DNA of 64,000 bases, from assembly GCA_044336985.1 (NCBI GenBank), contig JBIIOK010000001.1, forward strand, positions 4,998-68,997, given 5' to 3'. A program made the position numbers and the translations under genes. The DNA is from Pirellulales bacterium. Lineage in GTDB: Bacteria > Planctomycetota > Planctomycetia > Pirellulales > UBA1268. The notes beneath the pieces were generated by a model. It was not told the DNA's origin. It ran no database searches and saw nothing but the letters and a program-made list of their open reading frames with translations. Every line of letters starts with the position of its first letter. Position 1 is the stretch's first letter. Below are positions 3,636 to 52,082 of the stretch, piece by piece.

Positions 3636-3657
3636 GGTGCCAGCCACCAAATCTGGG
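3636..3657 (+). repeat. REP element copy (single)
   Basis: Exact 22-mer GGTGCCAGCCACCAAATCTGGG followed by CAATCTGG, with an A/T-rich 5' flank as in the other copies. Confidence 0.85.
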
Positions 3658-3678
3658 CAATCTGGGGAGTGCAGGGGA

Positions 3679-4377
3679 TTAATGGACCCAGATCGCTTTT
3701 TCGGCGACGGGGGGTCGCCCGCAGTGTCGGAGCGTCGCGTCGAGATCCAGGTTCGACGCGATCTGCTTCGCCCACGATTCGTCTCCAAACGGCCGACCGC
3801 GCACCGCGCAGGTTCGCAGACTCTGTAACTCGAGCTCAGTTTGCGGTTGGTTCACCCACTCGCGCCATCGCTCTCCGTGCCGCTCAGATGGCTGCGGCAC
3901 CGGCCAGGGGGCGAGCGGAATAGGGTCGCTGGGCGATTCCTGACCAAGGCTCGACCAGGGCCATGCTTCGGCCCTCGAAACGAGATTCGCGCGGAGCGGA
4001 TTTCGCTCGACATAGCGGACCACGGTGTGGAAATAGGCGTCGGTCTGGATCGGAAACGACTTGAACCGCCCCTGATAAAGGTGCCCAAGGCCGATCTCCT
4101 GGTGCGCCTTTTTCCAGCGCTTCACGTGGAGGTTCGAGACTTGCTGGACGAACGCCGACAGTTCACCGTCGCGCTCGGGCCAGAGCACCATGTGCCAATG
4201 ATTCGGCATGATGCAATAACTGCAGATCCGCATCGGCCGGGTTCGCAGCGACTCAGCCACGACGTCGATGAAAGATGCGTAGTCTGCGGCCGATTGAAAA
4301 ATGTTTCGTCGACCGACAGCGCGATTGAGGACGTGGAACGGCAGTCCACCGGGAGCAACTCGATGTGGGCGTGGCAT
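3679..4377 (-). CDS. REP-associated tyrosine transposase (RAYT; IS200/IS605-type Y1 HUH transposase fold)
   Basis: The ORF track gives 3679..4413, starting at TTG. The ATG at complement 4375-4377 gives MPRPHRVAPGGLPFHVLNRAVGRRNIF. HUH motif is in IMPNHWHMVLW. The catalytic Tyr context is VVRYVERNPLRANLV. It is flanked by REP copies. Confidence 0.85.
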   Translation of the reverse strand: MPRPHRVAPGGLPFHVLNRAVGRRNIFQSAADYASFIDVVAESLRTRPMRICSYCIMPNHWHMVLWPERDGELSAFVQQVSNLHVKRWKKAHQEIGLGHLYQGRFKSFPIQTDAYFHTVVRYVERNPLRANLVSRAEAWPWSSLGQESPSDPIPLAPWPVPQPSERHGERWREWVNQPQTELELQSLRTCAVRGRPFGDESWAKQIASNLDLDATLRHCGRPPVAEKAIWVH

Positions 4378-4480
4378 GAACAGATGTATATTTTCTTGCC
4401 AAAGCCTTGTCAAGTTACCTAGCCTTCGAGGGTGGTGCTATTGGCCGTACCTCGCTTCCCCGCAATAGGTGCAGTGAAAT

Positions 4481-4553
4481 GGTGCCAGCCACCAAATCTG
4501 GGCAATCTGCGCAAAAAACCTACCTATCTTTCCCAGATTTGGTGGCTGGCACC
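4481..4553. repeat. REP doublet (REPIN-like inverted pair, 29-nt spacer)
   Basis: Forward 22-mer at 4481-4502 and an exact reverse complement, CCCAGATTTGGTGGCTGGCACC, at 4532-4553. The pair can form a 22-bp stem. Confidence 0.9.
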
Positions 4554-5033
4554 ATTTTTCAAGACGACCGGGCCCAATGGCGACCGGCCGGGCGAATGCG
4601 ACCTCGAGACGACCCGCGACTTCGTGAAGCGGAGCGGCGCCCAGATCGGTATCAACAGCGGGTTCTTCAGCCGCACCGCTGAGGAGCGGCAGCTCGGCGT
4701 GGCCGATCTCAGTTCCTTGGCAGTGAGCGACGGCGTGAGGGTGTCCGATTGGGGCACGTGGATCAAGGACGCATTCAACGTCGCCGCCGACAACACCGTG
4801 ACCTTCGTCGTCCGTCCGAAGGACGCTGCCACCGGATATGCGACCGAGCCGAACGTCGATCTCTACAACGCGATGGCCGGCAACGTGCGGCTGCTCAAGG
4901 ACGGCACGATCCCGCCGGGGCCTGGGGGCGACGCCACCTATCCGCAGACCGCGGTGGGCCACACGGCCGATCACCGGCTCGTCCTCTTCGTCTCCGACGG
5001 GCGGCAGCCGGGGTTCAGCGCGATAACGATAAC
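4554..5033 (+). pseudogene. Phosphodiester glycosidase (NAGPA/DUF2233-like) gene fragment, truncated at both ends by REP doublets
   Basis: The internal part of ORF 4432..5058 reads ...RDFVKRSGAQIGINSGFF...LAVSDGVRVS...YNAMAGNVRLLKDGTI...YPQTAVGHTADHRLVLFVSDGRQPGFS. This matches the central blocks of the family (INgGFF, pLLvkDGk, RTAvG...DGRq..S.G). There is no signal peptide or N-terminal region. The C-terminal ...LNLDGGGS block is missing, and both ORF ends are translated REP sequence (WCQPPNLG / VPATKSG). Confidence 0.55.
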
Positions 5034-5092
5034 GGTGCCAGCCACCAAATCTGGGTAATTTGGCAAATTGCCCAGATTTGGTGGCTGGCACC
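5034..5092. repeat. REP doublet (15-nt spacer)
   Basis: Forward 22-mer at 5034-5055 and exact reverse complement at 5071-5092. The spacer TAATTTGGCAAATTG is itself nearly palindromic. Confidence 0.9.
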
Positions 5093-5175
5093 GGAATTTC
5101 CGGGAGGGGATCGGGGCGGAATTTTGAGCCGTCGCGCTAAACTGTTACGGGTCCCTCGACACGTTGGCCTCCGAG

Positions 5176-5694
5176 ATGCCAGTCTCAGACGACTTCGTCG
5201 CCCTCCTCACCAAGCACCAGCGGCAGCTGCACGCCTACATCTTTTCCCTGATCTGGAACCCCGCCGACGCCGACGACATCCTTCAGGAGACGAACCTCGT
5301 GCTTTTGAAGAAGGCCGCCGAGTTCGATTCCACGCGCGACTTTCTGCCGTGGGCATTGGCGATTGCGAAATTCCAAACGCTCGCCGGCCTCAAGCGCCGC
5401 AAGCGGCTGCGATTCGTGTTTGATGAATCGCTCGCGGCGCTCCTGGCCGACGACGCCGCCCGGGAGGATCCCGTCCTCGAGGCCCGCCGCCTGGCGCTGG
5501 CCACCTGCCTCCAAAAGCTCCCCGCGCGGCAGCGTGACCTGCTCGTTCGCCGCTACGAGCCGAACGCGGTGGTCGGCGAGATGGCCGCGGCGCTCGGCCT
5601 GAGCCTGAAGACGCTCTCCGACCGCCTGCGACGCATGCGGCAGAACCTGCTCGACTGCATCAACCGCACGCTCGCCGAGGAGGCTCTGCCATGA
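5176..5694 (+). CDS. ECF-type RNA polymerase sigma-70 factor (Rhodopirellula/Verrucomicrobium-type)
   Basis: The ORF track start 5164 is TTG; the first ATG is at 5176. Region 2: LHAYIFSLIWNPADADDILQETNLVLLKK...FLPWALAIAKF. Region 4 HTH: LPARQRDLLVRRYEPNAVVGEMAAALGLSLKTLSDRLRRMRQNL. There is a 4-nt ATGA overlap with the next gene. Confidence 0.9.
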   Translation: MPVSDDFVALLTKHQRQLHAYIFSLIWNPADADDILQETNLVLLKKAAEFDSTRDFLPWALAIAKFQTLAGLKRRKRLRFVFDESLAALLADDAAREDPVLEARRLALATCLQKLPARQRDLLVRRYEPNAVVGEMAAALGLSLKTLSDRLRRMRQNLLDCINRTLAEEALP

Positions 5695-7349
5695 CCTCCC
5701 TTTCGCAGCGCGAGCGCGACGAGCTCACGGAACTCCTCAACACTCTGGCCGACGGCGGCCTCTCGGAGGCCGAGGAACGCCGGCTGCGGGAGATCCTCGA
5801 CCGCGGCGTGCCGGCGCGGCGCATCTTCCGCGAGTTCGCCGCGCTGCACACCGTCCTCCACTGGGACTACGCCACGCTCCTGGCCCCGATGCCACCGCCC
5901 CCGTCCCGCGCGGCGAAGCGGGGCGACGACCGATGGTCGCCGATCCGCCGGGCGGCGGCGTTTCTTGCGGCGGCGGCAATGGCCGGGGCCGCGACCGTGG
6001 CCACCTGGATGCTCGTCGTGCAGCCCGCGGGCCCGCCGGCCGGCCGCGGCCCGCTCGCGACTGTGAAGCAAACGCGATTCCTGCTGCCGGCCGACGGCGA
6101 GCAACCGCTCGCGATCGGGCAGGGCCTCGAGGCCGGCCGGATCTCGCTCGTCGGCGGCGCTGTGGAACTCTTGCTCCGCAATGGCGTGGTCGTCGTCTTC
6201 GAGGGGCCGGGCGAACTCGATCTCTCCGGCGAACTGTCGGCGACGCTGCACGACGGCAACCTCGTCGTGCGGATGCCCGAGGGGATGCAGGGCTTCGTCG
6301 TGCGGACGCCCACGACCGACGTGCTCGACCTCGGCACCGAGTTCGCGGTCAGCATCGGGGCGGGCAACGCCACCGACGTGCAGGTGTACGACGGCGAGGT
6401 CATCACCTCGGCGGGCCGGCGACAGGAGGCGACGCGGGTGCCGCGGCGGCTGGTCGCGGGGGATGCGGCGCGATTTCCAGCGGTGCCGAAGGCCGAGCCA
6501 GTGCCGATGGCGTTCCGGCCCGAGCGGTTCGTCCGCGAACTGCCGGCCGACGTCGGCATCCCGCTGGGCAATTCGTCGACGGGCGACGACCTGCGGTATT
6601 ACGGTCCGGCCCGGCAGGCCTCGATCGCCGTCCATCGGGCACCGGCCGACATGGTGATCGACGGCCGGCTCGACGAATGGGGCGATGCGGTTGGCTTCAG
6701 CGGCACCCGCGACGGCACCGCCTCCTGCGCGGAGCGGGCCGACGGGCGGATGATGTACGACGACAGATTCCTCTACATCGCGGCCCGCGTCGGCGATCCC
6801 TTGCCGCTGCGGAGCATCATCGACCCGGAGATCGACGCTGCCTGGGGCTGGCGGGGCGGCGGCGTGCAGGTGCGGGTTTCGACCGATCGGCAGATGGGCT
6901 GGCCGGCCCGCGGCAATTCCTCCAGCTACTACGGCCAGCGGCGGATCGCGCCCTCGCCCGAGCAGGAAGAGTGTGCCCGCAATCCGCGGCTCGCGCATCT
7001 CACGATGTGGTTCCATGCCCCGACGAAGACACCCTGCCTCACGATCGTCGACGGCGCGCTCGTCGGCGAGATGCGGGTCAATCCGGCCGGTTTCAGCGGC
7101 AGCTTCGCCCCCGCCGCCGATGGCACCGGCTACACGATGGAATATGCGATTCCCTGGTCGCAGCTCGGCTGCGCCGACGACCCGCCGCGAAGCGGCGACG
7201 TGCTCGCCGCGGTCTGGCAGGTGATCTGGGCCGACGCGGCCGGCCGCATGCGTCGGGAGCAGATGGTGGAGATCCGCAATCCCGACGAGCCGCTGCGGAT
7301 CTACGTCTGGGAACGCGCCGCCACCTGGGGCCGCGCGGAGTACCAATAA
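5691..7349 (+). CDS. Anti-sigma factor, FecR-like, with C-terminal CBM9/DOMON-like extracytoplasmic module
   Basis: 552 aa. N-terminal anti-sigma region: ELTELLNTLADGGLSEAEERRLREIL. Single TM: AAFLAAAAMAGAATVATWMLVV. FecR-like beta region: GRISLVGGAVELLLRNGVVVVFEGPGELDL...VVRTPTTDVLDLGTEFAV. C-terminal part: VIDGRLDEWGDAVGF...DDRFLYIAARV...GYTMEYAIPWSQLG. Translationally coupled to the sigma gene. Confidence 0.85.
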   Translation: MTSLSQRERDELTELLNTLADGGLSEAEERRLREILDRGVPARRIFREFAALHTVLHWDYATLLAPMPPPPSRAAKRGDDRWSPIRRAAAFLAAAAMAGAATVATWMLVVQPAGPPAGRGPLATVKQTRFLLPADGEQPLAIGQGLEAGRISLVGGAVELLLRNGVVVVFEGPGELDLSGELSATLHDGNLVVRMPEGMQGFVVRTPTTDVLDLGTEFAVSIGAGNATDVQVYDGEVITSAGRRQEATRVPRRLVAGDAARFPAVPKAEPVPMAFRPERFVRELPADVGIPLGNSSTGDDLRYYGPARQASIAVHRAPADMVIDGRLDEWGDAVGFSGTRDGTASCAERADGRMMYDDRFLYIAARVGDPLPLRSIIDPEIDAAWGWRGGGVQVRVSTDRQMGWPARGNSSSYYGQRRIAPSPEQEECARNPRLAHLTMWFHAPTKTPCLTIVDGALVGEMRVNPAGFSGSFAPAADGTGYTMEYAIPWSQLGCADDPPRSGDVLAAVWQVIWADAAGRMRREQMVEIRNPDEPLRIYVWERAATWGRAEYQ

Positions 7350-7352
7350 AAC

Positions 7353-7410
7353 GGTGCCAGCCACCAAATCTGGGTAATTTGCAAACTACCCAGATTTGGT
7401 GGCTGGCACC
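7353..7410. repeat. REP doublet (14-nt spacer) starting 3 nt after the anti-sigma stop codon
   Basis: Forward 22-mer at 7353-7374 and exact reverse complement at 7389-7410. This 22-bp-stem hairpin sits between the anti-sigma gene and the dehydrogenase gene. Confidence 0.9.
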
Positions 7411-7421
7411 ATAATTGACTC

Positions 7422-10400
7422 ATGAAACAGACTACCGGAACGTTGTGGGCTGTCGCGGCGGCCCTCGCGATCGCCTGGCTCGTGGCCCCCGCGGCCGCGG
7501 CACCGGTGCCCTGGACCGCCTCGAATGTGAAGGGCACGCCGGAGCCGCCGCCCCCATTCCGCACGAAGAAAGTCTACGAGCACCTGCGGTTCGGGTCGGC
7601 CACCTCGCTGGCCTTCGCTCCCGGCAGCGACCGGGTCTTCGTGACCGAGCAATGGGGCAAGGTCTACTCGATCCCGGCCGACCGCGACTGCCGCCGGGCC
7701 GACCCGTTCGTCGACATCGCCGACCTCGTCAAGCGGCTCAATGTCGGCCGGTCCGACGCGGATCTGCTCCGGCCGTGGAACATCTTCCATCTCGCCTTCC
7801 ACCCCGACTTCGCCACCAACCGCTTCTGCTATCTCTGCTACACGATCGGCTACCGCGACGAGTCGCGGCCCTTTCCGAACGGCACGCGAGTGGTGCGGCT
7901 CGAGGTGATCGACGACGGCGGCGTGCCGCGGGCCGATCCGGCGAGCGAGGTCGAGATCATCACCTGGCCGTCCGGCGGCCACAACGGCGGTTGCCTCGCC
8001 TTCGGCCCCGACGGCATGCTCTACGTGTCGGCCGGCGACGGGGCCGATCATTTTCCGGCGGACCCGCACAAGACCGGGCAGGACCTCACCGACCTGCGGG
8101 CCTCGATCATGCGGATCGACGTCGATCATCCGACGAGTGGCCGCGGCTATTCGATCCCCGCCGACAACCCCTTCGTCGACGTGCCCGGAGCCCGCGGCGA
8201 ACTCTATTCCTTCGGCAACCGCAACATTTGGAAGATGAGCTTCGACCGAAAGACGGGCGAACTCTGGGCCGGCGACGTGGGGCTCGAGGTGTGGGAGCTC
8301 GTCTGCCGCGTGAAGGCGGGCGAGAACTACGGCTGGAGCATCGTCGAGGGCGCGAACCCCATCCATCCCGACTGGCCGCGGGGCCCGGCGCCGATCGCGA
8401 AGCCCTGGTGCCAGGTGCCGCACACGGCCGGGGCCTCGATCACCGGCGGCTTCGTCTATCGCGGCAAGAGGTTTCCGGAGCTCGTCGGCCGCTACGTTTT
8501 CGGCGACTGGGTGACCCGCCGCGTGTGGAGCATCGGCACGACCGGCGACGGGCCGGGCCCGCTCGTCGATCTCGTCGCCCCCACGATCCGCGTGGTCGCC
8601 TTCGCCGAGGATCGCGACGGCGAGATCTTCATCCTCGACTACGACGACGGCTCGATCCACGAGATCCTGCCCAACGACGAGGTGGCCGATGCGGGAAAGT
8701 TTCCCGAGCGGCTCTCCGAGACCGGTCTCTTTGCCGATACCGCGAAGCAGCAGCCGATGCCCGGCGTGACGCCGTTCGAGATCGCGGCCGAGGCCTGGGC
8801 CGACCATGCAAAGTCCCGCCGGTTCATCGGCCTCCCCGGCACGGGCAGTGTCAAGCTCAATCCGGGCAAGAAGCCGGTGCAGGGGTCGATGTTTTCCACG
8901 AGTCTCAACTATCCGCCGGGCACCGTGCTCGCCAAGACGTTTTCGATGCGGATGCGGGAGGATGATCCGCAGAGCGACCGCAAGCTCGAAACGCAGCTGC
9001 TCCACTTCGACGGCCGCCACTGGCACGGCTATTCATACGCCTGGAACGAGGCGGGCACCGACGCCGACCTCGTGGCGACCGAGGGGAAGAGCCTGCCGCT
9101 CGAGATCGCCGACGCCCGCGCGCCGGGCGGCAGGCGGGAGCAGACCTGGCGGTTTCTCGGCCGCAACGAATGCCAGCGATGCCACAACGAGTGGGCCGGG
9201 ACGTCGCTCGCCTTCGACGTCGCCCAGCTCAATCGAGACGTGCCGGCAGCGGGCGACGGCAAGGCGGTGAACCAGCTCCGCGAATTTCGCGCCCGCGGCC
9301 TCTTGGAGGACGTCGTCATCAAGCCGAATCTCGAGGCCGACCCCTTCGACACCATCCAGCGGCCCGGCTCCGAGGACACGCTGCCGCGGTTCCCCGATCC
9401 TCACGATCCCACCGCCGCGCTCGACGCGCGGGCGCGGGCCTACCTGCACACCAACTGCGCCGGCTGCCACCGCTTCGGCGGCGGCAGCGTGCCGCACGTC
9501 CACCTCAACACGGAGATCGTCACCGCGGATCTGGAGGTGCTCGGGATGCGGCCGGCGCGGGGCGACTTCGCCATACCCGAGGCCCGCGTGATCGCCCCGG
9601 GCGAGCCCCATCGTTCGACGCTCTGGTATCGCATGGCGACGTCCGGCCCCGGCCGGATGCCGCACATCGGCGCCGAACTGGTCGACGAGGCCGGGCTCGC
9701 CCTCGTCCGCGAGTGGATCGCGTCGCTGCCCCCCGATTCCATCGAGCGGCGGCTCGTCGCCCGGCTCGTTGCGATCGACGAGCAGGCCGTGCTCGCGAAG
9801 GAGAGCGCCGACGCGCCGCGGGAGCGGTTGCAGATGGCCCGCAAGATCGCCGCCGAAGCCAAGCGGACGCAGCCCGACGACGCCGACCTCGCGGCGGCCG
9901 AGAAGCAGCGGCTCGAAGCGGCCGCCGCACGGGCGGAACAACGGCTCGCCGAACGGCGGCAACTCCTGACGAAACTGCTCGGCTCGACGGGCGGCGCGGC
10001 GACGCTCGCCGACGCGCTCGTCGCCGGCCGGTTGCCGGCGGCGACCCGCGAATTCGTGCTCGACGGGATCGGCGCGGCCGATACCGTCGTCATCGGTCTC
10101 TTCGAAAGGTTCCTGCCGCCCGAGCGCCGGGTGCGACGCTTGGGCGCGGCGATCGACCCGCAGACGATCCTGTCGGTCGCCGGCGACGCCGACCGCGGCC
10201 GGTCGCTCTTCGCCGAATCGAGCGCGGTGCAGTGCCGCACCTGCCATGCCGTCGGCGGGCAGGGAGGCGCGGTCGGCCCGGCGCTCGACCGCGTCGCCAC
10301 GCGGCTCGACCGGCAGAAAATCCTCGAAAGCCTGCTCGAGCCGTCGAAGACGATCGCGCCCGAGTACCGCACGTGGCTGGCGGTCACGGACGACGGCCGC

Positions 10401-10601
10401 AGCGTGACGGGGCTCATGGTGAAGCGGACCGACGAGACCGTCTCGATCGTCGATGCCGCGGGTAAACTGACCGAGCTGGCCGCCGCGACGATCGACGAGC
10501 TCGAGCCGCTGCCTACGTCGCTCATGCCCGAACAACTGCTTCGAGACCTGTCGGCCGGTCAGGCCGCGGACCTGCTTGCCTACCTGGAGTCTTTGCGATG
10601 A
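7422..10601 (+). CDS. Secreted PQQ-dependent sugar dehydrogenase-like beta-propeller fused to multi-heme-motif cytochrome c / Pirellula-Verrucomicrobium-type heme-binding domain
   Basis: 1059 aa. Signal peptide: MKQTTGTLWAVAAALAIAWLVAPAAAA. GSDH-like blocks: GGHNGGCLAFGPDGMLYVSAGDG, NPFV..GELYSFGNRNIWKMSFD, YGWSIVEG. Middle region: LSETGLFADTAKQQPMPGVTPFEIAAEAWADHAKSRRFIGLP. Three CxxCH motifs: CQRCH, CAGCH, CRTCH. C-terminal part: ...SLMPEQLLRDLSAGQAADLLAYLESL. Confidence 0.85.
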   Translation: MKQTTGTLWAVAAALAIAWLVAPAAAAPVPWTASNVKGTPEPPPPFRTKKVYEHLRFGSATSLAFAPGSDRVFVTEQWGKVYSIPADRDCRRADPFVDIADLVKRLNVGRSDADLLRPWNIFHLAFHPDFATNRFCYLCYTIGYRDESRPFPNGTRVVRLEVIDDGGVPRADPASEVEIITWPSGGHNGGCLAFGPDGMLYVSAGDGADHFPADPHKTGQDLTDLRASIMRIDVDHPTSGRGYSIPADNPFVDVPGARGELYSFGNRNIWKMSFDRKTGELWAGDVGLEVWELVCRVKAGENYGWSIVEGANPIHPDWPRGPAPIAKPWCQVPHTAGASITGGFVYRGKRFPELVGRYVFGDWVTRRVWSIGTTGDGPGPLVDLVAPTIRVVAFAEDRDGEIFILDYDDGSIHEILPNDEVADAGKFPERLSETGLFADTAKQQPMPGVTPFEIAAEAWADHAKSRRFIGLPGTGSVKLNPGKKPVQGSMFSTSLNYPPGTVLAKTFSMRMREDDPQSDRKLETQLLHFDGRHWHGYSYAWNEAGTDADLVATEGKSLPLEIADARAPGGRREQTWRFLGRNECQRCHNEWAGTSLAFDVAQLNRDVPAAGDGKAVNQLREFRARGLLEDVVIKPNLEADPFDTIQRPGSEDTLPRFPDPHDPTAALDARARAYLHTNCAGCHRFGGGSVPHVHLNTEIVTADLEVLGMRPARGDFAIPEARVIAPGEPHRSTLWYRMATSGPGRMPHIGAELVDEAGLALVREWIASLPPDSIERRLVARLVAIDEQAVLAKESADAPRERLQMARKIAAEAKRTQPDDADLAAAEKQRLEAAAARAEQRLAERRQLLTKLLGSTGGAATLADALVAGRLPAATREFVLDGIGAADTVVIGLFERFLPPERRVRRLGAAIDPQTILSVAGDADRGRSLFAESSAVQCRTCHAVGGQGGAVGPALDRVATRLDRQKILESLLEPSKTIAPEYRTWLAVTDDGRSVTGLMVKRTDETVSIVDAAGKLTELAAATIDELEPLPTSLMPEQLLRDLSAGQAADLLAYLESLR

Positions 10602-15889: not shown

Positions 15890-15973
15890 GATGCCGCGGC
15901 GAAGCCGGGCCGCGAGGGGCGATTGCCAGCTCGGCGGTGGTACACTCGATGATCCCGGGAATACGACGAATCG

Positions 15974-16183
15974 ATGAAGCGTTCGACCGAACAGCCGGCG
16001 CGGCTGAGCGTCACTGACCAGGTGTCGCAGGCACGTGCCGATCGTGCGGCATGGCAGGCCTGTACGCCTGAAGAACGCCTCGACGCCGTCGAGGCCTTGA
16101 GGCTGCAGGCTGGGAAGTTCATCTATGAATACCCAACCAGACTTCGAAGACTTCTTACGATTACTCGAAGTTCATCGCGTTGA
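15974..16183 (+). CDS. Small conserved hypothetical protein, upstream partner of the nucleotidyltransferase-fold gene
   Basis: 69 aa with an ATG start. ADRAAWQACTPEERLDAVEALRLQAGKFIYEYPTRLRRLLTITR matches a small-protein pattern I recall (..yW.s.TPEERL.AlE.LR....y....RLqRvl.i..) that is usually found just upstream of this nucleotidyltransferase family. It overlaps the next gene by 59 nt. Confidence 0.5.
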   Translation: MKRSTEQPARLSVTDQVSQARADRAAWQACTPEERLDAVEALRLQAGKFIYEYPTRLRRLLTITRSSSR

Positions 16184-16565
16184 GTACATGATCGTGGGGG
16201 GCTACGCGGTCGCGTATCACGGCTTTCCGCGATTCACGAAGGACATAGACATCTTCTTTTCCGATGGCGATGAGAACCTCGTGCGCCTCCAGGCGGCGCT
16301 CGTGGCCTTCGGCTTTCAGCCAGCGACCGTGCCCGTCGAGACGTTGGGGAAACCCGACGCGGTGTTGGCGGTCGGCGTGGAGCCGGTGCGGATCGACCTC
16401 CTCAACAGGATCGACGGGGTGACCTTCGACGAGGCACGGTCCTCCACGGTTCGAGGCCGCTACGGAGCCGTCGAGGTGACGTTCATCGGCAAGGAGCATT
16501 TGCTGCGGAACAAGCGTGCCACGGGAAGGCACCGTGATTTGGGCGACGTGGACGAACTGCTCTGA
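16125..16565 (+). CDS. Nucleotidyltransferase-fold protein (DUF6036-like; possible toxin-antitoxin-type cassette component)
   Basis: 146 aa. N-terminus: MNTQPDFEDFLRLLEVHRVEYMIVGGYAVAYHGFPRFTKDIDIFF (GG...hG.pR.TkDiDi motif). C-terminus: LLRNKRATGRHRDLGDVDEL. It lies between the two giant paralogs. Confidence 0.7.
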   Translation: MNTQPDFEDFLRLLEVHRVEYMIVGGYAVAYHGFPRFTKDIDIFFSDGDENLVRLQAALVAFGFQPATVPVETLGKPDAVLAVGVEPVRIDLLNRIDGVTFDEARSSTVRGRYGAVEVTFIGKEHLLRNKRATGRHRDLGDVDELL

Positions 16566-16601
16566 GCGGCGGGCTGTCGCTCCGCCGGATCAGTGGCCGA
16601 G

Positions 16602-16623
16602 CCCAGATTTGGTGGCTGGCACC
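16602..16623 (-). repeat. REP element copy (single, reverse orientation)
   Basis: Exact CCCAGATTTGGTGGCTGGCACC at 16602-16623, 36 nt after the nucleotidyltransferase stop and about 100 nt upstream of giant paralog B. Confidence 0.85.
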
Positions 16624-16658
16624 TTTTTCGTTTCGTGTAACCGTTGGCGGCTTTCACT

Positions 16659-16694
16659 CATTATAGTGGCGGCCGACATTATATTGGCGGCCGA
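16659..16694 (+). repeat. Tandem 18-bp direct repeat (CATTATAgTGGCGGCCGA / CATTATAtTGGCGGCCGA) in the leader of giant paralog B; candidate regulatory site
   Basis: Two head-to-tail copies at 16659-16676 and 16677-16694, 17/18 identical. A third partial TTGGCGGC lies at 16644-16651. Each unit carries a TATAGT/TATATT -10-like hexamer. This is an AT-rich island 33 nt upstream of the ATG at 16727. Confidence 0.6.
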
Positions 16695-16726
16695 GCGGTC
16701 CCACGCACCATCGGGAGTGTTTTTCG

Positions 16727-19700
16727 ATGAATCGCCGTATTACTTCATGGCTCGCGGTTCTCTCGATCCTCGCCGGACTCGCGGCCGAGGCCGCGGCGGC
16801 GCCGCCCGCCGCGACCGGGCCGGACCTCTCGATCGGGCTCAAGAAGTCGGACATCGATCTCGAGGCCTGCAAGGCGTTTGTCGACGGCAAGGAGGCCGAG
16901 GGCGACTTCAAGAACGGCATCCTCGCCACGCTGGGGCTCGCTGGAGGGAATCCGTGGACCGCGATCCAACCCAGCAAGTGGAAGGAACACAAGGTCATCC
17001 AGTATCTCGTGGTGCTCAAGCGGCCGGTGAAGTTCGGCGCGGTGCTCTTCCAGAAGAACGGCACCATGCAGTACCTGAAGCCGGGCGAGGCCCTGCCGCC
17101 GGATCCCGCCAAGGCAGAAAGCTGGTCGGAGGTGACGTTTCCGCCGAACCAGTCGGGCTGGCGGCTGGCGACCGCCGCGGGCGAGTCGCAGGCCTTTCTC
17201 TGCACCGTGAAGAACGACCGGTACGGCTGGGATCCCTTCACGTTCCTGCGGCTCATGAAGCCGCGGCTCTACAACATCGTGCCCGAGGGGCTCGCCAACG
17301 GTGAGGCGGAATACGTCGCGTATGCGCAGTTTAGTCCGCCGACGTACTACAAGGCGGCGAACATCGTCGCCGGCAAGGGCTCCTGGCAGAGCCATGGCCC
17401 GGACGACACCGGCCGCGTGCCGCGGCCCCCGGTGACCGATATCGACCCGACCTGGTTCGTGGTGTCGTGGAACGAGCCACGGGAGATTTCCGGGATCCTC
17501 CTGAATTCAAACTTCGTGAATTTCAAGATGTATTCCTACAAGGGACCGCCCGGCATCAACCCGGCGGTGGCCGGCCCGCAGGACTGGGCACGGATCAAGC
17601 AGGAGCCACGGTCGGACGGCGGAGCCGCCGTGATCACGTTTCCGCCGATCACGACGCGGGGACTGCGGTTCGTGGCGGAAGCGACCAGGTCGACGGGCGG
17701 TCCCAACGGAACCGCTCGCTGTGGCGCGATCTCGGGGCTGCAGGTGTTCGCCGACCTCAAGGAGGCGGCTGTGCCGAAGCTCGAGGTGGCGGGGCAGGCA
17801 CCGCCGCTGGCGATCAAGTTTGCACTGCCGGAGAAGGCGATCGTGTCGATGGCCGTCGACGGCTCCGACGGCCGCCGGGCGCGGAATTTTCCCGCGCGGC
17901 TGGAGATGGATGCCGGCGAGCAGACGGTGGGCTGGGATCTCAAGGACGAGAGCGGCAGCTTCGTGGCTCCGGGCAGTTACACGTGGAAGGCGATCACGCA
18001 TCCCGGGCTGCAGCTCAAATATGAGATGACGCCGTACCCCAACGTCGAGATGCTGACGAAGGACAACTCGCCGTGGCCGAACGGGGATAGCGGCCCCGGC
18101 GGCTGGATGGCGAACCATACGCCGCCGCGCGCAGTCTGCGCCGCGGGCGCGGACCGGGTCTTCCTGGGCGCCCAAATGTGCGAGGGTGGCTCGGCCCTGA
18201 TCGAGTGCGATCTCGAGGGGCGCAAGGCTTGGGGGCACAGCAACATGATCCCCTGGACCGGACCGGCCTTCCTCGCGAGCGACGGCAAAGACGTCTATGC
18301 CATGCCCACGGTGGCGGGGGGCTTCGCCTTCAAGGGGCTGGTCGATTACGTCTGGCGGTTCACGCTGCCGGAGAAGAAGCTCGACACGCCCTTCAAGCTC
18401 GAGGCCAGCGCCACCCGACAGCGCGGCGCCACTGGCCTGGCGGTTCGCGACGGCAGGCTCTACGTCGCGGTGAACGCAGGAACCGACTGGCTGGAAAACG
18501 CGTTTGACCCGGGAATCGTCGACCAGGACAACTGCGAGCCGAAGTATGCGAAGCCGGTGAAGGCAGACGCGTTTGCACCCGACCGCCGCGAGGACTTCCT
18601 GCGACTGCTGCGGCTCACCCGCGCGCCGGCGGGCCAAGACCTGATCTATCTCGAGACCGCGAAGCAGCCGGCGGCCCGGCAGCACATCGTGATCGCGCTC
18701 GAGAGCGAGACGCCGATCGGGAGTTTCGTCTTTCCGCTGCCGGAGGTGAAGGACCTGCAGATGATCATCAGCGTCTTGAAGCCGGGCGCCGCCTATCCGC
18801 CGAATCCAAACAAGGACGCCGACTGGCAGCGGTTGTATGCCGGCAAGGGGAAGGGGTGGACCGTGGTGCCGGCGCCCGAGAAGACGCTGACGCGGGCCAT
18901 CCGCCTGAGCTTCGACAAGGGGCTCGATGAACTCGACGAGGCGGCTCTGGGCGGCGAATTGGGCGACGACGGGGGGCCAACCCTCGACGGCGGGCTGGAC
19001 CTGGGCGACAAGGGGGACGGCGCGGGCTCCAACGACAAAAACAAGGCCGCCTGGTTCGCCCAGCTCGAGGGCATGAAGATCCTCCGGCGCCGCTTCGAGA
19101 ATCTCTTCCCCACCTGCAAGGTGAGCGTGAATTCCGGCACGGTCACGCCGGAGGGGGAGTGGGAGGCGAACCGCGAGAGGCCGCTGACGTCCGAGAATCC
19201 CGGCATCTACATGATGGAGTGGGATGCGCCGCAGCAGGTCCGCGGGCTGGCGATCAAGGAAGTCGACGGCCGCTTCACCGAGATCGACGCCTGGACTGGC
19301 GACGGCTCTCCCGACATGAAGGCCGACAAGGGCTGGGAGAAGCTCGCGACCTACGAGCAGGACCGGCGGTTGTACTACCACCCCGACAAGGCCTACAACC
19401 ACGCGGCCCGCTACATGGACGGCTATGTCGATTTCGGCCGCGACGTGACGACGCGCGCGCTCCGGATGCGGGTGACCGAACAGTGGCTGTCGAGCGATCA
19501 CGGCTATTACCCGATGGGAGTGCGGAGCGACCGTGGGGGCCGAACGCTCGATCCGACCCGCTGCCGAATCTACGGGGTGGCGGTGCTGCGGGTGGCGGGG
19601 GGCGATACTCCGGTCGACATCCTCGCGACCCAGCGGATCGAGGTCTACGATCTCACCACGAAGAAGCTCGTGCTGGAAATCCCGTTCCCCCAGGGGAGCG

Positions 19701-22033
19701 ACATCGCCTTCGCCCCGGATGGATCGCTCTACGGCATCTCCGACGGCAAGGTTGTGAAGATCGATATCGACGGAGGCAAGCATGTGCCGCTGCCACTCGA
19801 CGTGGGGCGGCCCACGGCGATCACGTGTGGCAAGGCCGGCGAACTCTTCGTGTTCGACAGTGCGGCCGACAAGCGTGTGATCCGCGTCTTCGACGCGGCA
19901 GGCAAGCCGCTGCGGACGATCGGCACGCCGGGCGGCCGGATCATGGGCCCCTACGATCCAAAGCGGTTCACGAGCAGCCCGGGCGTGGCGGTCGATCTGG
20001 CCGTCGATGCCCAAAACCAGCTCTGGGTGGTGGAGTGCGACTGGTCCCCGAAGCGGGTGAGCCTCTGGGGCGTGGACGGCACGTTCAAGAAGGACATGTT
20101 CGGCCCCACGGCCTACGGCGGCGGTGGGGCCCTCGATCCATTCGACAAGTCGCGGCTCTATTACGCACCGTACGACGGACACGGGCTCGAGTTCGCCATC
20201 GACTGGAAGACGGGGGCCACGGCCCTGAAGAACGTGCTTTGGCAGGGCAACGCGCGGGCCGGCGAGCAGGCCATTCAGATCAAGGATCGCCAGTACCTCG
20301 TGACGCGGCCGATGTTCACCGTCCAGCCGGCGGGAATCGTCTATCTCCGGGAGAAAGACCGGCTCAAGTGCGTGGCGGCGATGGGTCATGCCGGTGGCTT
20401 TCCCATGTTGAAGACGCCGGGGATCCTCGACAAGCTCGGCCGAAAGGCCCTCGGCGATGCCGGGTTTGTGTGGAGCGATCGCAGCGGCGACGGTGCCCCG
20501 CAGCCGGACGAGGTGGAATTTTTCGACGCGCCGGACGGTAGTGCCGTGGCCATCGGCAGGTTCGACGAGACGCTCGGCGTCGATTCGTCCAACTTCCGCT
20601 ATGAAGTGAAGGAGATCCTCGCCAACGGCACTCCGGCTTACGAGCGGAAAAAGAAGGCTTTCAATTCCCGCGTGGTGCGGATGGACGACGGCCGGTTCTT
20701 CGTCGTCTTCGACAACCAGCGGATGGCCGCCGTCGATGCCGACGGGAAGGCCGCCTGGACGCATCCGGTGGAAGGCTGGGGCGTGCACGCGATCGCCGGT
20801 GCCAAGACGCCGTGGTATCCGGGCCAGGCCGTGGCGCAGTTCGACGTCATCGGCCATGAAACGGCGACGGCGGGCGATCTGGGGGAGTTCTTCGTGACGA
20901 ACACCAACTGCGGCACGTGGCACATCTGGACCGCCGACGGGCTCTTGGCCGGCCGGATTTTCCAGGACCTCCTCGGCCCGAACAAGAAGCCGTGGAGCAT
21001 GAAGGAGCACGACCGCGGGCTCGACCTGACCGACGTGACGGCGGGCCAGGAGCACTTCAACGGCTCCTTCTGCAAGACCCGCGAAGACGGGAAGTTCTAC
21101 GTCGTCGCCGGCGGCATCACCACCAGCGTCGTCGAGGTGCAGGGCTTCGAAAAGTTCAAGCGGCTCGGGGGGGCGCTGACGGTGACCCAAAAAGACGTCG
21201 ACGCGGCCATGGAATGGGATCGCAAGGTGCAGTCGCGGAAGCTCTACGAGGCGGCGAAGATGATCGAGTGCCGACGGCGGAAGGGCGGGATCACGATCGA
21301 CGGCAATCCCGCCGATTGGGAATTCACGACTGCGGCGCTCGATGGCCGCGACGCTTCACTCGCCATGGCCTATGACGACGCGAACCTCTACGTCTGCTTC
21401 AACGTGCGCGGATCAGGGCCGCTCAAGAACACGGGCAACGACTGGCATCGCCTCTTCAAGACCGGCGCGTCGGTCGACCTGCAGATCGGCGTCGATCCGC
21501 AGGCCGACGTGAAGCGGAAGATTCCGGCCGTGGGCGACTGCCGCCTGCTCATGACCATGACGGACGAGGGGCCGACGGCGGTGCTCTACCAGCCGAACAA
21601 GCCGGGCTCCAAGCCGGAGGAGGAATGGGAGGCGGTGACGGGCGTGGCCCAGGCGGCCTTCGACCGCGTGGCGAAGCTGCCAGACGTGCGGATGGCGGCG
21701 CGGGGCGGCGAGAATGGCTACTGCTTGGAAGCCATGATTCCGCTCAAGTCGCTGGGGCTCGAGATCGTGCCGGATGTGCCCTACAAGTTCGACTGGGGCA
21801 TCCTCGTGAGCGGACCGGATGGCAGCGAGGTGCTCGAGCGACTCTACTGGGCCAACCCCCAGACGAGGATGCTGTCGGACGAGGCGATCGAAGCGAAGCT
21901 CCATCCGGATCTCTGGGGCACGGTGCGGTTCGCAACGGGCTCCGGCCGCAAGGGGCAGCCCGATCTCGACATGGAGAAGAAACTCGGCGGCGAGTTGGAC
22001 GACGACTTCGAGCTCGACCCCGACGAGGAATAA
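16727..22033 (+). CDS. Giant secreted multidomain protein, paralog B (same architecture as 10598-15889)
   Basis: 1768 aa. Signal peptide: MNRRITSWLAVLSILAGLAAEAAA. It is colinear with paralog A over its full length. By hand alignment, about 24 differences fall in the first ~175 mature residues. It has the same FlgD-Ig, NHL and C-terminal CBM9-like blocks and ends in ...DDDFELDPDEE (A ends in ...DDDFKLDPDEE). Confidence 0.85.
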   Translation: MNRRITSWLAVLSILAGLAAEAAAAPPAATGPDLSIGLKKSDIDLEACKAFVDGKEAEGDFKNGILATLGLAGGNPWTAIQPSKWKEHKVIQYLVVLKRPVKFGAVLFQKNGTMQYLKPGEALPPDPAKAESWSEVTFPPNQSGWRLATAAGESQAFLCTVKNDRYGWDPFTFLRLMKPRLYNIVPEGLANGEAEYVAYAQFSPPTYYKAANIVAGKGSWQSHGPDDTGRVPRPPVTDIDPTWFVVSWNEPREISGILLNSNFVNFKMYSYKGPPGINPAVAGPQDWARIKQEPRSDGGAAVITFPPITTRGLRFVAEATRSTGGPNGTARCGAISGLQVFADLKEAAVPKLEVAGQAPPLAIKFALPEKAIVSMAVDGSDGRRARNFPARLEMDAGEQTVGWDLKDESGSFVAPGSYTWKAITHPGLQLKYEMTPYPNVEMLTKDNSPWPNGDSGPGGWMANHTPPRAVCAAGADRVFLGAQMCEGGSALIECDLEGRKAWGHSNMIPWTGPAFLASDGKDVYAMPTVAGGFAFKGLVDYVWRFTLPEKKLDTPFKLEASATRQRGATGLAVRDGRLYVAVNAGTDWLENAFDPGIVDQDNCEPKYAKPVKADAFAPDRREDFLRLLRLTRAPAGQDLIYLETAKQPAARQHIVIALESETPIGSFVFPLPEVKDLQMIISVLKPGAAYPPNPNKDADWQRLYAGKGKGWTVVPAPEKTLTRAIRLSFDKGLDELDEAALGGELGDDGGPTLDGGLDLGDKGDGAGSNDKNKAAWFAQLEGMKILRRRFENLFPTCKVSVNSGTVTPEGEWEANRERPLTSENPGIYMMEWDAPQQVRGLAIKEVDGRFTEIDAWTGDGSPDMKADKGWEKLATYEQDRRLYYHPDKAYNHAARYMDGYVDFGRDVTTRALRMRVTEQWLSSDHGYYPMGVRSDRGGRTLDPTRCRIYGVAVLRVAGGDTPVDILATQRIEVYDLTTKKLVLEIPFPQGSDIAFAPDGSLYGISDGKVVKIDIDGGKHVPLPLDVGRPTAITCGKAGELFVFDSAADKRVIRVFDAAGKPLRTIGTPGGRIMGPYDPKRFTSSPGVAVDLAVDAQNQLWVVECDWSPKRVSLWGVDGTFKKDMFGPTAYGGGGALDPFDKSRLYYAPYDGHGLEFAIDWKTGATALKNVLWQGNARAGEQAIQIKDRQYLVTRPMFTVQPAGIVYLREKDRLKCVAAMGHAGGFPMLKTPGILDKLGRKALGDAGFVWSDRSGDGAPQPDEVEFFDAPDGSAVAIGRFDETLGVDSSNFRYEVKEILANGTPAYERKKKAFNSRVVRMDDGRFFVVFDNQRMAAVDADGKAAWTHPVEGWGVHAIAGAKTPWYPGQAVAQFDVIGHETATAGDLGEFFVTNTNCGTWHIWTADGLLAGRIFQDLLGPNKKPWSMKEHDRGLDLTDVTAGQEHFNGSFCKTREDGKFYVVAGGITTSVVEVQGFEKFKRLGGALTVTQKDVDAAMEWDRKVQSRKLYEAAKMIECRRRKGGITIDGNPADWEFTTAALDGRDASLAMAYDDANLYVCFNVRGSGPLKNTGNDWHRLFKTGASVDLQIGVDPQADVKRKIPAVGDCRLLMTMTDEGPTAVLYQPNKPGSKPEEEWEAVTGVAQAAFDRVAKLPDVRMAARGGENGYCLEAMIPLKSLGLEIVPDVPYKFDWGILVSGPDGSEVLERLYWANPQTRMLSDEAIEAKLHPDLWGTVRFATGSGRKGQPDLDMEKKLGGELDDDFELDPDEE

Positions 22034-22038
22034 ATAAA

Positions 22039-22111
22039 GGTGCCAGCCACCAAATCTGGGCAAGATGCGTAAGCGGCTTGCCCAGATTCTCCAGATTTGG
22101 TGGCTGGCACC
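22039..22111. repeat. REP doublet filling the convergent intergenic gap
   Basis: Forward 22-mer at 22039-22060 and a 21-nt reverse copy, CCAGATTTGGTGGCTGGCACC, at 22091-22111. The spacer contains GGGCAAG...CTTGCCC and a partial extra CCCAGATT. It starts 5 nt after the stop at 22033 and ends 3 nt before the stop of the minus-strand esterase gene. Confidence 0.9.
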
Positions 22112-51455: not shown

Positions 51456-51943
51456 TCACTTCCCGCCTCGCCGGGCCGCTGCGGCTTATCGCGTGCACCG
51501 GCATCGTCGCCGTGGCGTGGCTCGTCGTCCTTCCCTGGTTCGGTCGTCAATCGCCGATCGAGCGACACATTCGCGTGATGGAAGAAGGGGGAGTGAATCC
51601 GGCGGCGATGGTCTACACCGAGCTCGAGCGGCTCCCGCTCCGCCCCGGCTGGATCGAGGATCACCTCGTCCTCTGGCCCTCGGAAAAGGGCACGCAGCCT
51701 TTTTTCCCACCGGCTTCCGCCGGGGGCTTTTGGTGGCCGGATCACTTCCTGCGGATGCCCAACAACACCGGGAGCGGCCGCGGACGGGCAGATCCGCTTG
51801 CGGAGCAAGCGGTCTCCTGTCGACAGGCTGAAGCCCGTCCTACCAAAGCAAAGGCCGTGCCGAACAGGATTGGGACAGTTGGGCAAAGCCGCCGGCCCGG
51901 GACGAGAAAAAATCGAGAAAATTTCACCCCGAAAAACCGTTGA
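51452..51943 (+). CDS. Hypothetical small membrane protein (extent uncertain)
   Basis: GTG start with a GTGA overlap on the yeiH stop. It is in frame inside track ORF 50321..51943. The N-terminal 75 aa look genuine (TM LIACTGIVAVAWLVVLPWF, then ...GVNPAAMVYTELERLPL). The C-terminal half is low-complexity, so the real stop or a sequence change may lie earlier. Confidence 0.35.
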   Translation: MITSRLAGPLRLIACTGIVAVAWLVVLPWFGRQSPIERHIRVMEEGGVNPAAMVYTELERLPLRPGWIEDHLVLWPSEKGTQPFFPPASAGGFWWPDHFLRMPNNTGSGRGRADPLAEQAVSCRQAEARPTKAKAVPNRIGTVGQSRRPGTRKNRENFTPKNR

Positions 51944-51956
51944 AAACGGTTTTTCG
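51930..51956. terminator. Perfect 11-bp-stem hairpin (CGAAAAACCGT-tgaaa-ACGGTTTTTCG) in an AT-rich island
   Basis: Stem arms at 51930-51940 and 51946-51956 with loop 51941-51945. The TGA ending ORF 51452..51943 sits in the loop. The stem has low GC, and the only U-run is inside the 3' arm, so this is a weak intrinsic-terminator candidate. Confidence 0.3.
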
Positions 51957-52082
51957 AGGTGGCGAGGGGGGCCGGCAAACTGTCGACAGCATGGCGGGGA
52001 GCCGATATGATAGGAATAAGTGTCGTGCGGAGGACCAGCCTGGCAACGCCGCCTCGAGCACCTGGCGCGAGGAAATGCCACT

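Follow-up and report, generated by a model that had tools for sequence, protein, structure and literature searches.

A RAYT-like HUH/Y1 transposase gene bracketed by inverted terminal repeats, and its gene-less doublets, in freshwater Planctomycetota

We examined a 64,000-nt stretch of DNA (the window) from a Pirellulales bacterium (assembly GCA_044336985.1, contig JBIIOK010000001.1, positions 4,998 to 68,997), in which a 22-nt sequence, GGTGCCAGCCACCAAATCTGGG, recurs on both strands together with a gene for a 232-aa HUH/Y1 protein related to RAYTs (REP-associated tyrosine transposases; REP, repetitive extragenic palindrome). The 22-mer or its reverse complement starts at 3636+, 4481+, 4532-, 5034+, 5071-, 7353+, 7389-, 16602-, 22039+ and 22090-. 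Nine of the ten copies are exact and 22090- carries one mismatch, the chance expectation being 0 copies (100 dinucleotide-preserving shuffles of the window, whose G+C content is 67.7%). They are arranged as four inverted +/- doublets, with spacers of 29 nt (4481/4532), 15 nt (5034/5071), 14 nt (7353/7389) and 29 nt (22039/22090), and two singles. The features are as follows.

3636..3657, plus strand: right-end terminal repeat of the RAYT unit, an exact 22-mer lying 21 nt past the RAYT stop codon, in the same place and orientation in nine orthologous loci
3679..4377, minus strand: gene for a RAYT-like HUH/Y1 tyrosine transposase of 232 aa (from Pfam Y1_Tnp, NCBIfam, PDB and AlphaFold2/Foldseek comparisons)
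4385..4413, minus strand: promoter-like TTGACA-17 nt-TATACA, ending 7 nt ahead of the ATG
4418..4439, minus strand: decayed left-end terminal repeat in the canonical place, AGCACCACCCTCGAAGGCTAGG, with 13/22 matches
4481..4553, no strand: doublet with a 29-nt loop (-31.6 kcal/mol, z = -10.3), flanked by GAAAT...ATTTTT
4555..5033, plus strand: fragment of a NAGPA (phosphodiester glycosidase) gene, covering Pfam NAGPA profile positions 2-118 of 169
5034..5092, no strand: doublet with a 15-nt loop (-36.2 kcal/mol), a minimal fusion of two 29-nt ends; this 59-nt element is 98% identical in the related stretch L032
7353..7410, no strand: doublet with a 14-nt loop, 3 nt past the stop codon of a FecR-like gene and ending 11 nt ahead of the start of a glucose/sorbosone dehydrogenase (GSDH)-cytochrome c gene
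16602..16623, minus strand: single unit with AAAAA 5' on its own strand, between a DUF2204 gene and the second of two giant paralogues
22039..22111, no strand: doublet with a 29-nt loop and 1 mismatch in one arm (-37.5 kcal/mol), flanked by AAA...TTTT

A sequence-only reading of the window had reported the ten copies, the four inverted doublets with their hairpin potential and the confinement of all copies to the first 22 kb, and each of these observations holds. Folded as single-stranded DNA, the doublets reach -31 to -37.5 kcal/mol (z = -10 to -12), and the top four short-range inverted repeats of the entire 64 kb, by strength and length, are these same doublets. The first 22 kb hold all six elements and the remaining 42 kb hold none (p ~0.002 under uniformity), and a search with the 16-nt core of the 22-mer, allowing up to 3 mismatches, found no further copy past 22111 in the window. 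The copies are intergenic by a crude gene map based on G+C content at third codon positions (GC3), so that the claim that they avoid credible coding sequence also stands, except that 5034 overlaps the final codons of an open reading frame (ORF), which is itself a truncated pseudogene fragment. The 22039..22111 doublet occupies the whole gap between two convergent genes, whose stop codons are 5 nt and 3 nt away. An Rfam gathering scan of the window gave no match.

The same reading had called the 22-mer a REP, which it is not. A single unit (A5 plus the 22-mer) is not palindromic, since its minimum free energy is -2.8 kcal/mol (z = 0.2) and 107 of 200 shuffles fold equally well; it begins with GGTGCC and bears a GTAG/GTGG foot at neither end. 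The 22-mer behaves as a terminal inverted repeat, not as a classical REP. A position-frequency table of 243 copies, taken from related genomes as well as the window, shows a near-invariant AAAAA as the 5' flank (A = 0.64, 0.87, 0.97, 0.95 and 0.81). Within the 22-mer there is essentially no variation at positions 1-16, positions 17-22 read either TCTGGG or ATTGGA, and about 7 further bases 3' of the 22-mer (YAAnnTG) are partly conserved. The table defines an element arm of A5 + 22 + ~7 nt, and the short doublets of 58-59 nt are evidently two such arms joined head to head. Of the flanks said to be shared by all copies, the A-rich 5' side is therefore real, while the 3' YAAT is found in 5 of the 10 window copies only. 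The outer 13 nt of the unit approximate the palindrome GGTGCC-N-GGCACC, which is perfect in the variant of a distant relative (L118).

The proposal that 3679..4377 on the minus strand encodes a protein of the Y1/HUH transposase fold is borne out by its match to Pfam Y1_Tnp (PF01797, E = 5e-12) and by structural comparison. In a phmmer search of all PDB sequences, 4ER8 (E. coli TnpAREP with its REP hairpin) is the sole match at E<0.01 (E = 6e-7), and no match to IS608, ISDra2 or IS200-type TnpA was found in the PDB at E up to 1. An AlphaFold2 model built with 43 homologues (mean predicted local distance difference test score, pLDDT, 86.5) again has 4ER8 as its top Foldseek match (E = 1.4e-8; template modelling score, TM, 0.71 on the target), and ISDra2, IS608 and IS200 TnpA are matched at E = 2e-5 to 1e-3. 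By sequence and predicted fold, the protein is closer to TnpAREP/RAYT than to IS200 TnpA. The catalytic residues are in place in the alignment, as H60-W-H62 and Y122, with the surrounding RYVERN, are invariant in the 43 homologues; within Y122-V-E-R-N126-P127, residues Y122, E124, R125 and N126 are invariant and P127 is outside the columns conserved at 90% or more. The protein thus has the Y-x-x-x-N-P motif that is the signature of class 2 (TnpAREP), not the Y-x-x-x-Q of IS200 class 1 (Quentin et al., PMC6006769). The core is followed by a W141-S-S motif and by a conserved helical tail of about 90 aa (residues 145-232, with W158-P, V175-N, RGxPxGxxxW and GRP; pLDDT ~85-93), which has no Pfam match, helix-turn-helix (HTH) and DnaA_C included, even at E up to 10.

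Its designation as a RAYT, also made from the sequence alone, needs qualification: the protein is nearer to 4ER8 than to the TnpA of IS200, IS608 or ISDra2, but it scores 71.5 bits against the NCBIfam model NF047646 (REP_Tyr_transpos), under the cut-off of 80, and in motifs, length and tail it is unlike the groups that own REPINs (REP doublets forming hairpins). All 43 family members match that model, with a best E of 5.5e-22. Group 2 (subclass 2.2) is characterised by DHLH, YIHYNP and 165 aa, and Group 3 (subclass 2.5) by DH[LF]H, YI[VI]ANP and 151 aa (PMC6006769, Table 1); in a motif-level comparison NHWH, YQ, YVERNP, W-S-S, the length of 232 aa and the tail fall outside both signatures. Subclass 2.1, or Group 1, has a median length of 238 aa, NH[VYF]H and a tail with an SS motif, is equated with the TIRYTs of Di Nocera and includes 291 of 292 Bertels Group 1 RAYT sequences (PMC6006769). 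Judged by motifs, length and tail against these published descriptions, the protein appears to fit subclass 2.1/Group 1 best. Full-length homologues with 26-30% identity reside on proteobacterial plasmids, which is consistent with this placement, since Bertels remarks that among the true RAYT groups (Group 6 falls within IS200) a plasmid location is known only in Group 1. The homologue family comprises 27,653 clusters at 50% identity (E up to 1e-3), and an exact-sequence look-up of the protein returned no record. The composition of the gene is atypical, with a GC of 61.7% and a GC3 of 0.71 vs 0.87-0.92 (~0.9) in its neighbours.

Orthologues of the gene (70-79% identity) were found in nine stretches, each from a different metagenome-assembled genome (MAG) among the matches listed, and all nine share one layout, A5-[22-mer,+]-TAGTTTGAC-N17/18-TATACA-N7-ATG ... 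stop ... CAGATTG-[22-mer,-]-T4-5. The + copy starts 61-62 nt before the ATG and the - copy lies 22-69 nt past the aligned end in 9/9 loci, with 0-1 mismatch in these terminal repeats. In the window the right end reads CAGATTG-CCCAGATTTGGTGGCTGGCACC on the RAYT strand. The sequence at 4418..4439 aligns column by column with the intact left repeats of the nine orthologues, and its score of 13/22 is reached by only ~0.2% of window positions, whereas the 4481 doublet is 41 nt further out than the canonical left repeat. The gene had been described as sitting between a single copy and an inverted doublet, the defining arrangement of a RAYT. Inverted copies do flank the gene, here and in nine other species, but the doublet is not the canonical flank, and the true left copy has decayed. 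TTGAC and TATAC(A), which lie just inside the left end, do not vary among the 10 orthologous upstream regions and are present too in the distant relatives L118 and L135, and the TTGACA/TATACA pair looks like the gene's own putative promoter; if it is used, the mRNA would be leaderless or almost so. A promoter consensus scan of the window did not call this pair, on account of the A at the sixth position of the second hexamer.

The ten RAYT genes are intact (229-232 aa), with ratios of nonsynonymous to synonymous divergence (dN/dS) of 0.04-0.16 and synonymous divergence (dS) of 1.0-2.3 between the major lineages, a pattern that marks the gene as evidently old, divergent and under purifying selection. 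As dS is saturated and yet the repeats differ by 0-1 mismatch, their identity cannot be put down to recent horizontal spread of the unit. The genes flanking RAYT are common only to the closest species (L005, L076 and L107), and in L067 the RAYT unit lies on the opposite side of a shared neighbour gene. There is one RAYT copy in the window and one in each of the nine MAG loci sampled. Given the decayed left end, the window RAYT gene is probably no longer mobile, i.e. domesticated. Tandem direct duplications of the terminal unit were observed at the ends of the RAYT gene in L107 (1578-1640), L067 (1813-1869) and L094 (~6636-6690), with a period of 35 nt in L107 (A6 + 22-mer + TAGTTTG); they suggest action at the unit borders, either by the enzyme or by slippage during replication.

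In more distant relatives the repeat changes with the protein. At 63% protein identity (L117, P0062) the right end is GGTGCCAGCCACCTAATTTGGG and the left end is decayed; at 58% (L118, P0076) both ends are AAAAAAC-GGTGCCTGGCACCGAATCTGGG, and a doublet of this variant repeat with a 30-nt loop lies 10 kb from the RAYT gene; at 54% (L135, P0113) both ends are AAAA-(T/G)GGGAC(A/G)GGTCCATT, a third copy of the repeat lies 600 nt downstream, and TTGAC again follows the repeat. The geometry is constant in these relatives, with an A-run, a repeat ~40-60 nt 5' of the ATG, a repeat shortly past the stop codon and a T-run. Repeat divergence tracks protein divergence, which is the strongest indirect sign available that the repeat is recognised by the protein. 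The outer octamer fits GGGGWSAS, a motif that Di Nocera gave for TIRtron repeats, at 6/8 positions in the window (GGTGCCAG) and at 7/8 in L135 (GGGGACGG / TGGGACAG).

The 22-mer family, proposed from the window alone, is abundant elsewhere. An exact scan of one genome per GTDB species yielded 8-kb stretches, at least 116 of them, from at least 50 species-level assemblies, so that at least 50 freshwater Planctomycetota species carry the exact 22-mer; the hosts among the matches listed are nearly all freshwater MAGs labelled Pirellulales, Planctomycetia or Planctomycetaceae. None of these 116 stretches comes from the genome of the window, the best match being 78% at the nucleotide level over 1.3 kb. 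Viral contigs gave 0 matches to the 22-mer, and phage carriage is not indicated. Close pairs in the 116 stretches are convergent (+/-) in 80 of 87 cases, with 7 of 87 in other orientations, and together with the window there are 90 +/- doublets and 78 singles. Loops of 15 nt (29 cases), 29 nt (29), 30-33 nt (18) and ~41 nt form sharp length clusters, loop sequences vary widely among doublets, and position 23 of the arms is mismatched in 74 of 90 doublets. Among the classifiable elements, 84 of 100 adjoin the 3' end of a gene by a crude gene caller (median distance 26 nt; 29 within 10 nt of the stop codon), and 33% lie between convergent gene pairs, against a background of 21%. The 5-nt flanks of doublets are inverted relative to each other (A5/T5; at least 4/5 match in 66 of 89) and are not target-site duplications, of which none was found in 89 doublets; direct 5-nt identity is 0-1/5 in 80 of 89, and the next five bases likewise show no direct identity. 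Flanks that are inverted and never direct exclude a miniature inverted-repeat transposable element (MITE) of the DDE type and fit Y1 chemistry, and the absence of duplications likewise speaks against a conventional insertion sequence (IS), an outcome for which the sequence-only reading had allowed.

Several side observations were made in this set. The crude GC3 gene caller places a doublet of L038 (2690-2774) inside a 758-aa ORF, which may reflect an intragenic insertion that keeps the frame (cf. the REPs reported in Opitutus terrae) or two ORFs fused into one. Some high-GC freshwater MAGs with the repeat are labelled 'Candidatus Kuenenia stuttgartiensis' (L001, L011, L021, L051, L061, L075 and others), and single 22-mer matches occur in MAGs labelled Chitinophagaceae, Actinomycetota and Verrucomicrobiota (L016, L022 and L095). 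These odd labels probably reflect mislabelling or binning contamination, not true spread.

Orthologous sites bear on how the elements persist. In the set ascertained by the 22-mer, the element is present at the matched site in 96 of 96 tests and a flank-pair test found 0 empty sites, figures that overstate conservation because the set demanded one exact 22-mer per stretch; the apparent lack of empty orthologous sites arises in part from this ascertainment. In three orthologous doublet groups, pairwise identity is 94-100% in the arms (54 nt including A5/T5), 38-97% in the loops and 67-100% in the 200-nt, mostly coding flanks, as in L059 vs L080, where it is 100% in the arms, 38% in the loop and 72-74% in the flanks. 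Groups A and C, as well as the closer pairs of B, have loops whose common descent can still be recognised (CAAGATGCCTATAAC... in 5/5 members of group A), which indicates that the same insertions were passed on vertically, with arms held and loops drifting. Orthologues free of the 22-mer ascertainment were obtained by scanning Joint Genome Institute (JGI) metagenomes with the GSDH-cytochrome c protein, which gave 14 loci at 72-88% identity. The junction between the FecR-like gene and GSDH, which holds a perfect doublet in the window, has in L121 (88%) a doublet with a near-identical loop and 8 changes in 44 arm nt, and in L122 (85%) a remnant only, GGCTGGCACC plus a T-run; in L128 (78%) and L126 (72%) the junctions are short unrelated spacers, i.e. 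empty sites. All 8 differences between the window and L121 fall on the L121 branch when compared with the family consensus, and the ~75 kb of these un-ascertained FecR/GSDH loci hold no further 22-mer copy. The arms are thus not universally protected, being intact in some lineages and decaying in others.

Past mobility is visible next to the RAYT unit. NAGPA homology begins right after the T-run of the 4481-4553 doublet and stops at the first base of the 5034-5092 doublet. In L128, where the order NAGPA-sigma-FecR-GSDH is kept, the NAGPA frame continues 66 aa past the window break, through an LDGGGS motif, and in L132 it extends ~110 aa ahead of the window start, with a possible start Met ~67 residues upstream and a hydrophobic signal-like stretch. 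Beside the RAYT unit, a host NAGPA gene has evidently been cut at both sides, exactly at the doublet borders. Taken with the empty sites, this truncation shows insertion and DNA rearrangement by the elements in this lineage.

We consider it probable that the locus is a 'TIRtron'-type RAYT system, that is, a Y1 gene bracketed by inverted ends together with a population of gene-less doublets. Its core would be one selectively maintained HUH/Y1 gene of the TnpAREP/RAYT class, with its own promoter just inside the left end, and the bracket would consist of inverted copies of a ~27-nt terminal sequence (AAAAA + GGTGCCAGCCACCAAATCTGGG). The gene-less derivatives would be two ends (22 nt + ~7 subterminal nt each) fused head-to-head around a loop of 15 or ~29 nt, lying as REPIN-like or MITE-like doublets in intergenic DNA, mostly right after stop codons. 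By analogy with IS608, ISDra2 and E. coli TnpAREP, the enzyme would recognise the arms on single-stranded DNA, where a doublet would fold back on itself as a hairpin at least 22 bp long, with position 23 mismatched, and would cut and rejoin by means of Tyr122 and a metal bound to the HUH motif, which may spread or maintain the doublets. Recognition of the non-palindromic arm as double-stranded DNA is conceivable. Most copies carry A5 on the upstream and T5 on the downstream side, and for this reason the doublets likely act secondarily as bidirectional intrinsic terminators, a plausible role that cannot explain the invariance of the arm sequence.

Several observations weigh against this picture or against parts of it. 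Arm conservation is inflated by the ascertainment described above, and the sole orthologue series obtained without it shows decay; the protein stays below the NCBIfam cut-off; the single arms lack the subterminal hairpins normally read by Y1 transposases; and loops differ among copies inside one genome, which is unexpected if doublets recently copy whole. Furthermore, base-pair covariation in 29 doublets of the same length is no greater than in shuffles, and variable arm positions are often unpaired, so that the hairpin is not demonstrably the selected form. The conserved feature of the arms is sequence, not structure. A bolder version of the TIRtron-type reading, which we put forward tentatively and think less likely to be right than wrong, is that a RAYT lineage outside Groups 2 and 3 has been co-opted across the freshwater Planctomycetota clade of at least 50 species, the 27-nt arms being actively kept letter-perfect at orthologous sites, by RAYT homogenisation or per-site selection, as loops and synonymous sites randomise. 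The doublets would then be functional, e.g. as bidirectional terminators recognised by the RAYT, not mere parasites, and loss of the enzyme would lead to loss of the arms.

The 5' A-runs and 3' T-runs around GC-rich stems of at least 22 bp, together with the position after stop codons (84/100 at gene 3' ends, 29 of them within 10 nt), the excess between convergent genes (33% vs 21%) and the persistence of doublets at orthologous sites across species, would also be expected if the doublets were mainly host elements, either bidirectional Rho-independent terminators or stabilisers of mRNA 3' ends under per-site selection, with the RAYT as their historical source only. A terminator needs pairing and not a fixed sequence, whereas here the sequence is fixed, compensatory changes are absent and the variable positions are often mismatched; 78 unpaired single units are conserved too; the copies at 5034 and 7353 lack a T-run, and 7353 sits 11 nt ahead of a co-directional gene; and the repeat co-varies with the RAYT lineage and decays at orthologous sites in some lineages. 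We regard this explanation as somewhat doubtful. A terminator consensus scan, which is unsuited to such long stems, detected no more than a 5-bp mini-hairpin with a T-run within single arms. It is quite improbable that the locus is instead a classical REP/REPIN-RAYT system of Group 2 or 3, as in Enterobacteria and Pseudomonas, in which the 22-mers would be REPs, the doublets REPINs replicating as units and the RAYT a standard equivalog. Such a system would account for convergent doublets that form long hairpins, for a RAYT-like gene bracketed by inverted units and for TnpAREP as the best PDB match, and the arm decay in L121 resembles, in pattern alone, the decay of REPINs after RAYT loss in N. 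gonorrhoeae (bioRxiv 10.1101/2021.07.10.451892). Yet neither a palindromic unit (z = 0.2) nor a GT[AG]G foot is present, NHWH, YVERNP, the 232-aa length and the tail misfit Groups 2 and 3, the NCBIfam score is under the cut-off, and the loops are unconserved among copies.

Conservation of sequence and not structure in at least 50 species is what a binding site for a host factor that has nothing to do with the RAYT would show, such as a DNA-uptake-type signal or a nucleoid-protein site; the GGTGCC-N-GGCACC near-palindrome, perfect in L118, agrees with this, and such sites can also sit as inverted pairs after genes. The bracket of fixed geometry around the RAYT in every lineage examined and the co-variation of repeat and RAYT point to the RAYT instead, and no candidate factor was found, which leaves a host-factor site very unlikely. 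Least credible of all is a DDE-type IS that ends in the 22-mer as its terminal inverted repeat and has the doublets as its MITEs. Long non-palindromic terminal inverted repeats accompanied by short, internally deleted derivatives are indeed typical of IS/MITE pairs, but the Y1 gene is the only gene found between inverted 22-mers (10 species), no DDE gene adjoins any window copy, and the absence of target duplications from all 89 doublets led us to reject a DDE-MITE origin.

The TIRtron-type reading has precedents. Di Nocera et al. (2013, PMC3733652) described RAYT-like genes with long non-palindromic terminal repeats and dimer-rich families as TIRtrons/TIRYTs and reported, for Rhodopirellula baltica and Opitutus terrae, both GTAG REPs and RAYT/TIRYT genes flanked by repeats. 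The view that such a family in a genome of the Planctomycetes-Verrucomicrobia-Chlamydiae (PVC) group calls for description thus makes too much of its novelty. Contrary to the TIRtron reports, no surrounding repeats were found for subclass 2.1 genes by Quentin et al. (2018, PMC6006769), and REPINs occur only with Groups 2 and 3 according to Bertels and colleagues. The present locus shares with TIRtrons a Y1 gene with long, non-self-complementary terminal inverted repeats at fixed distance and repeats that form moderately abundant families and are often dimers. It is partly like them in its protein of ~230 aa with a C-terminal tail and W-S-S after the core, and in an outer end near GGGGWSAS (6/8 here, 7/8 in the 54% relative). 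It differs in that no HTH or DnaA_C similarity is detectable in the tail, in its NHWH, as W is not among the listed 'u' residues of subclass 2.1, and in the letter-for-letter conservation in at least 50 species with orthologous doublets, which is unreported for TIRtrons. A full-text literature search for the 22-mer sequence found no paper.

With the REPIN-RAYT systems (Group 2 in E. coli and Neisseria, Group 3 in Pseudomonas; Nunvar 2010, Bertels & Rainey 2011, Ton-Hoang 2012), the locus has in common a Y1 gene flanked by an inverted short repeat that fills extragenic space chiefly as inverted, hairpin-forming doublets, and a long, apparently vertical persistence with decay in some lineages; the non-palindromic units without GTAG foot, the unconserved loops, the other motif class and length, the extra C-terminal domain and the Planctomycetota host set it apart. 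TnpA of IS200/IS605 elements (IS608, ISDra2) resembles it in the HUH/Y1 fold (Foldseek E ~1e-5 to 1e-4), in the lack of target-site duplications and in a presumed single-strand mechanism. It has Y-x-x-x-Q instead of Y-x-x-x-N-P, and those IS are multi-copy and identical, whereas the gene here is single in the window, divergent (orthologue dS >1) and under purifying selection, its ends lack subterminal hairpins and there is no tnpB. Bacterial MITEs such as Correia/NEMIS of Neisseria are likewise short, gene-less, hairpin-capable intergenic inverted-repeat elements beside genes, with effects on transcripts, but here there is no target-site duplication, the partner is Y1 and not DDE, and the loops are far shorter (14-41 nt). 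We see in the locus a further member of the known TIRtron kind, from a clade new to it and with a repeat sequence absent from the literature searched, and neither a new kind of element nor a new principle.

Its added value lies in the breadth and sharpness of the comparative signal. Knowledge of REPIN-RAYT systems comes almost wholly from Enterobacteria, Pseudomonas and Neisseria, and here a TIRYT-like lineage is found in another phylum. The contrast between saturated synonymous sites and drifting loops, on the one hand, and 22-nt arms that are identical in dozens of species and shift with distant proteins, on the other, is a useful one. It provides a natural experiment on what a RAYT recognises and on whether the repeats are maintained by the enzyme, by selection or by both, questions that could be addressed with lake time-series metagenomes already containing this clade.

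The neighbouring genes of the window include a cassette at 5164-10601, comprising an extracytoplasmic function (ECF) sigma factor, the FecR-like anti-sigma factor and the 1059-aa GSDH-cytochrome c fusion, and the order ECF sigma/FecR/GSDH is conserved in the metagenomic relatives L121, L122, L125, L126 and L128. It is followed by two tandem giant paralogues of 1763 and 1768 aa (10598-15889 and 16727-22033), which are 76% identical over 1747 aa and have a weak FlgD_ig match as their only Pfam hit; between them lie a DUF2204/AbiEii-like nucleotidyltransferase gene (16125-16565) and the single 22-mer. The 850-aa hydrolase adjoining the 22039 doublet is a variable domain fusion, for which a homologue search gave no full-length orthologue. 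Finally, a near-perfect 17-bp palindrome unrelated to the 22-mer family, CACCCCGAAAAACCGTT / AACGGTTTTTCGAGGTG, lies at 51925-51961 in the intergenic gap 51455-52020 and may be an operator or a terminator.

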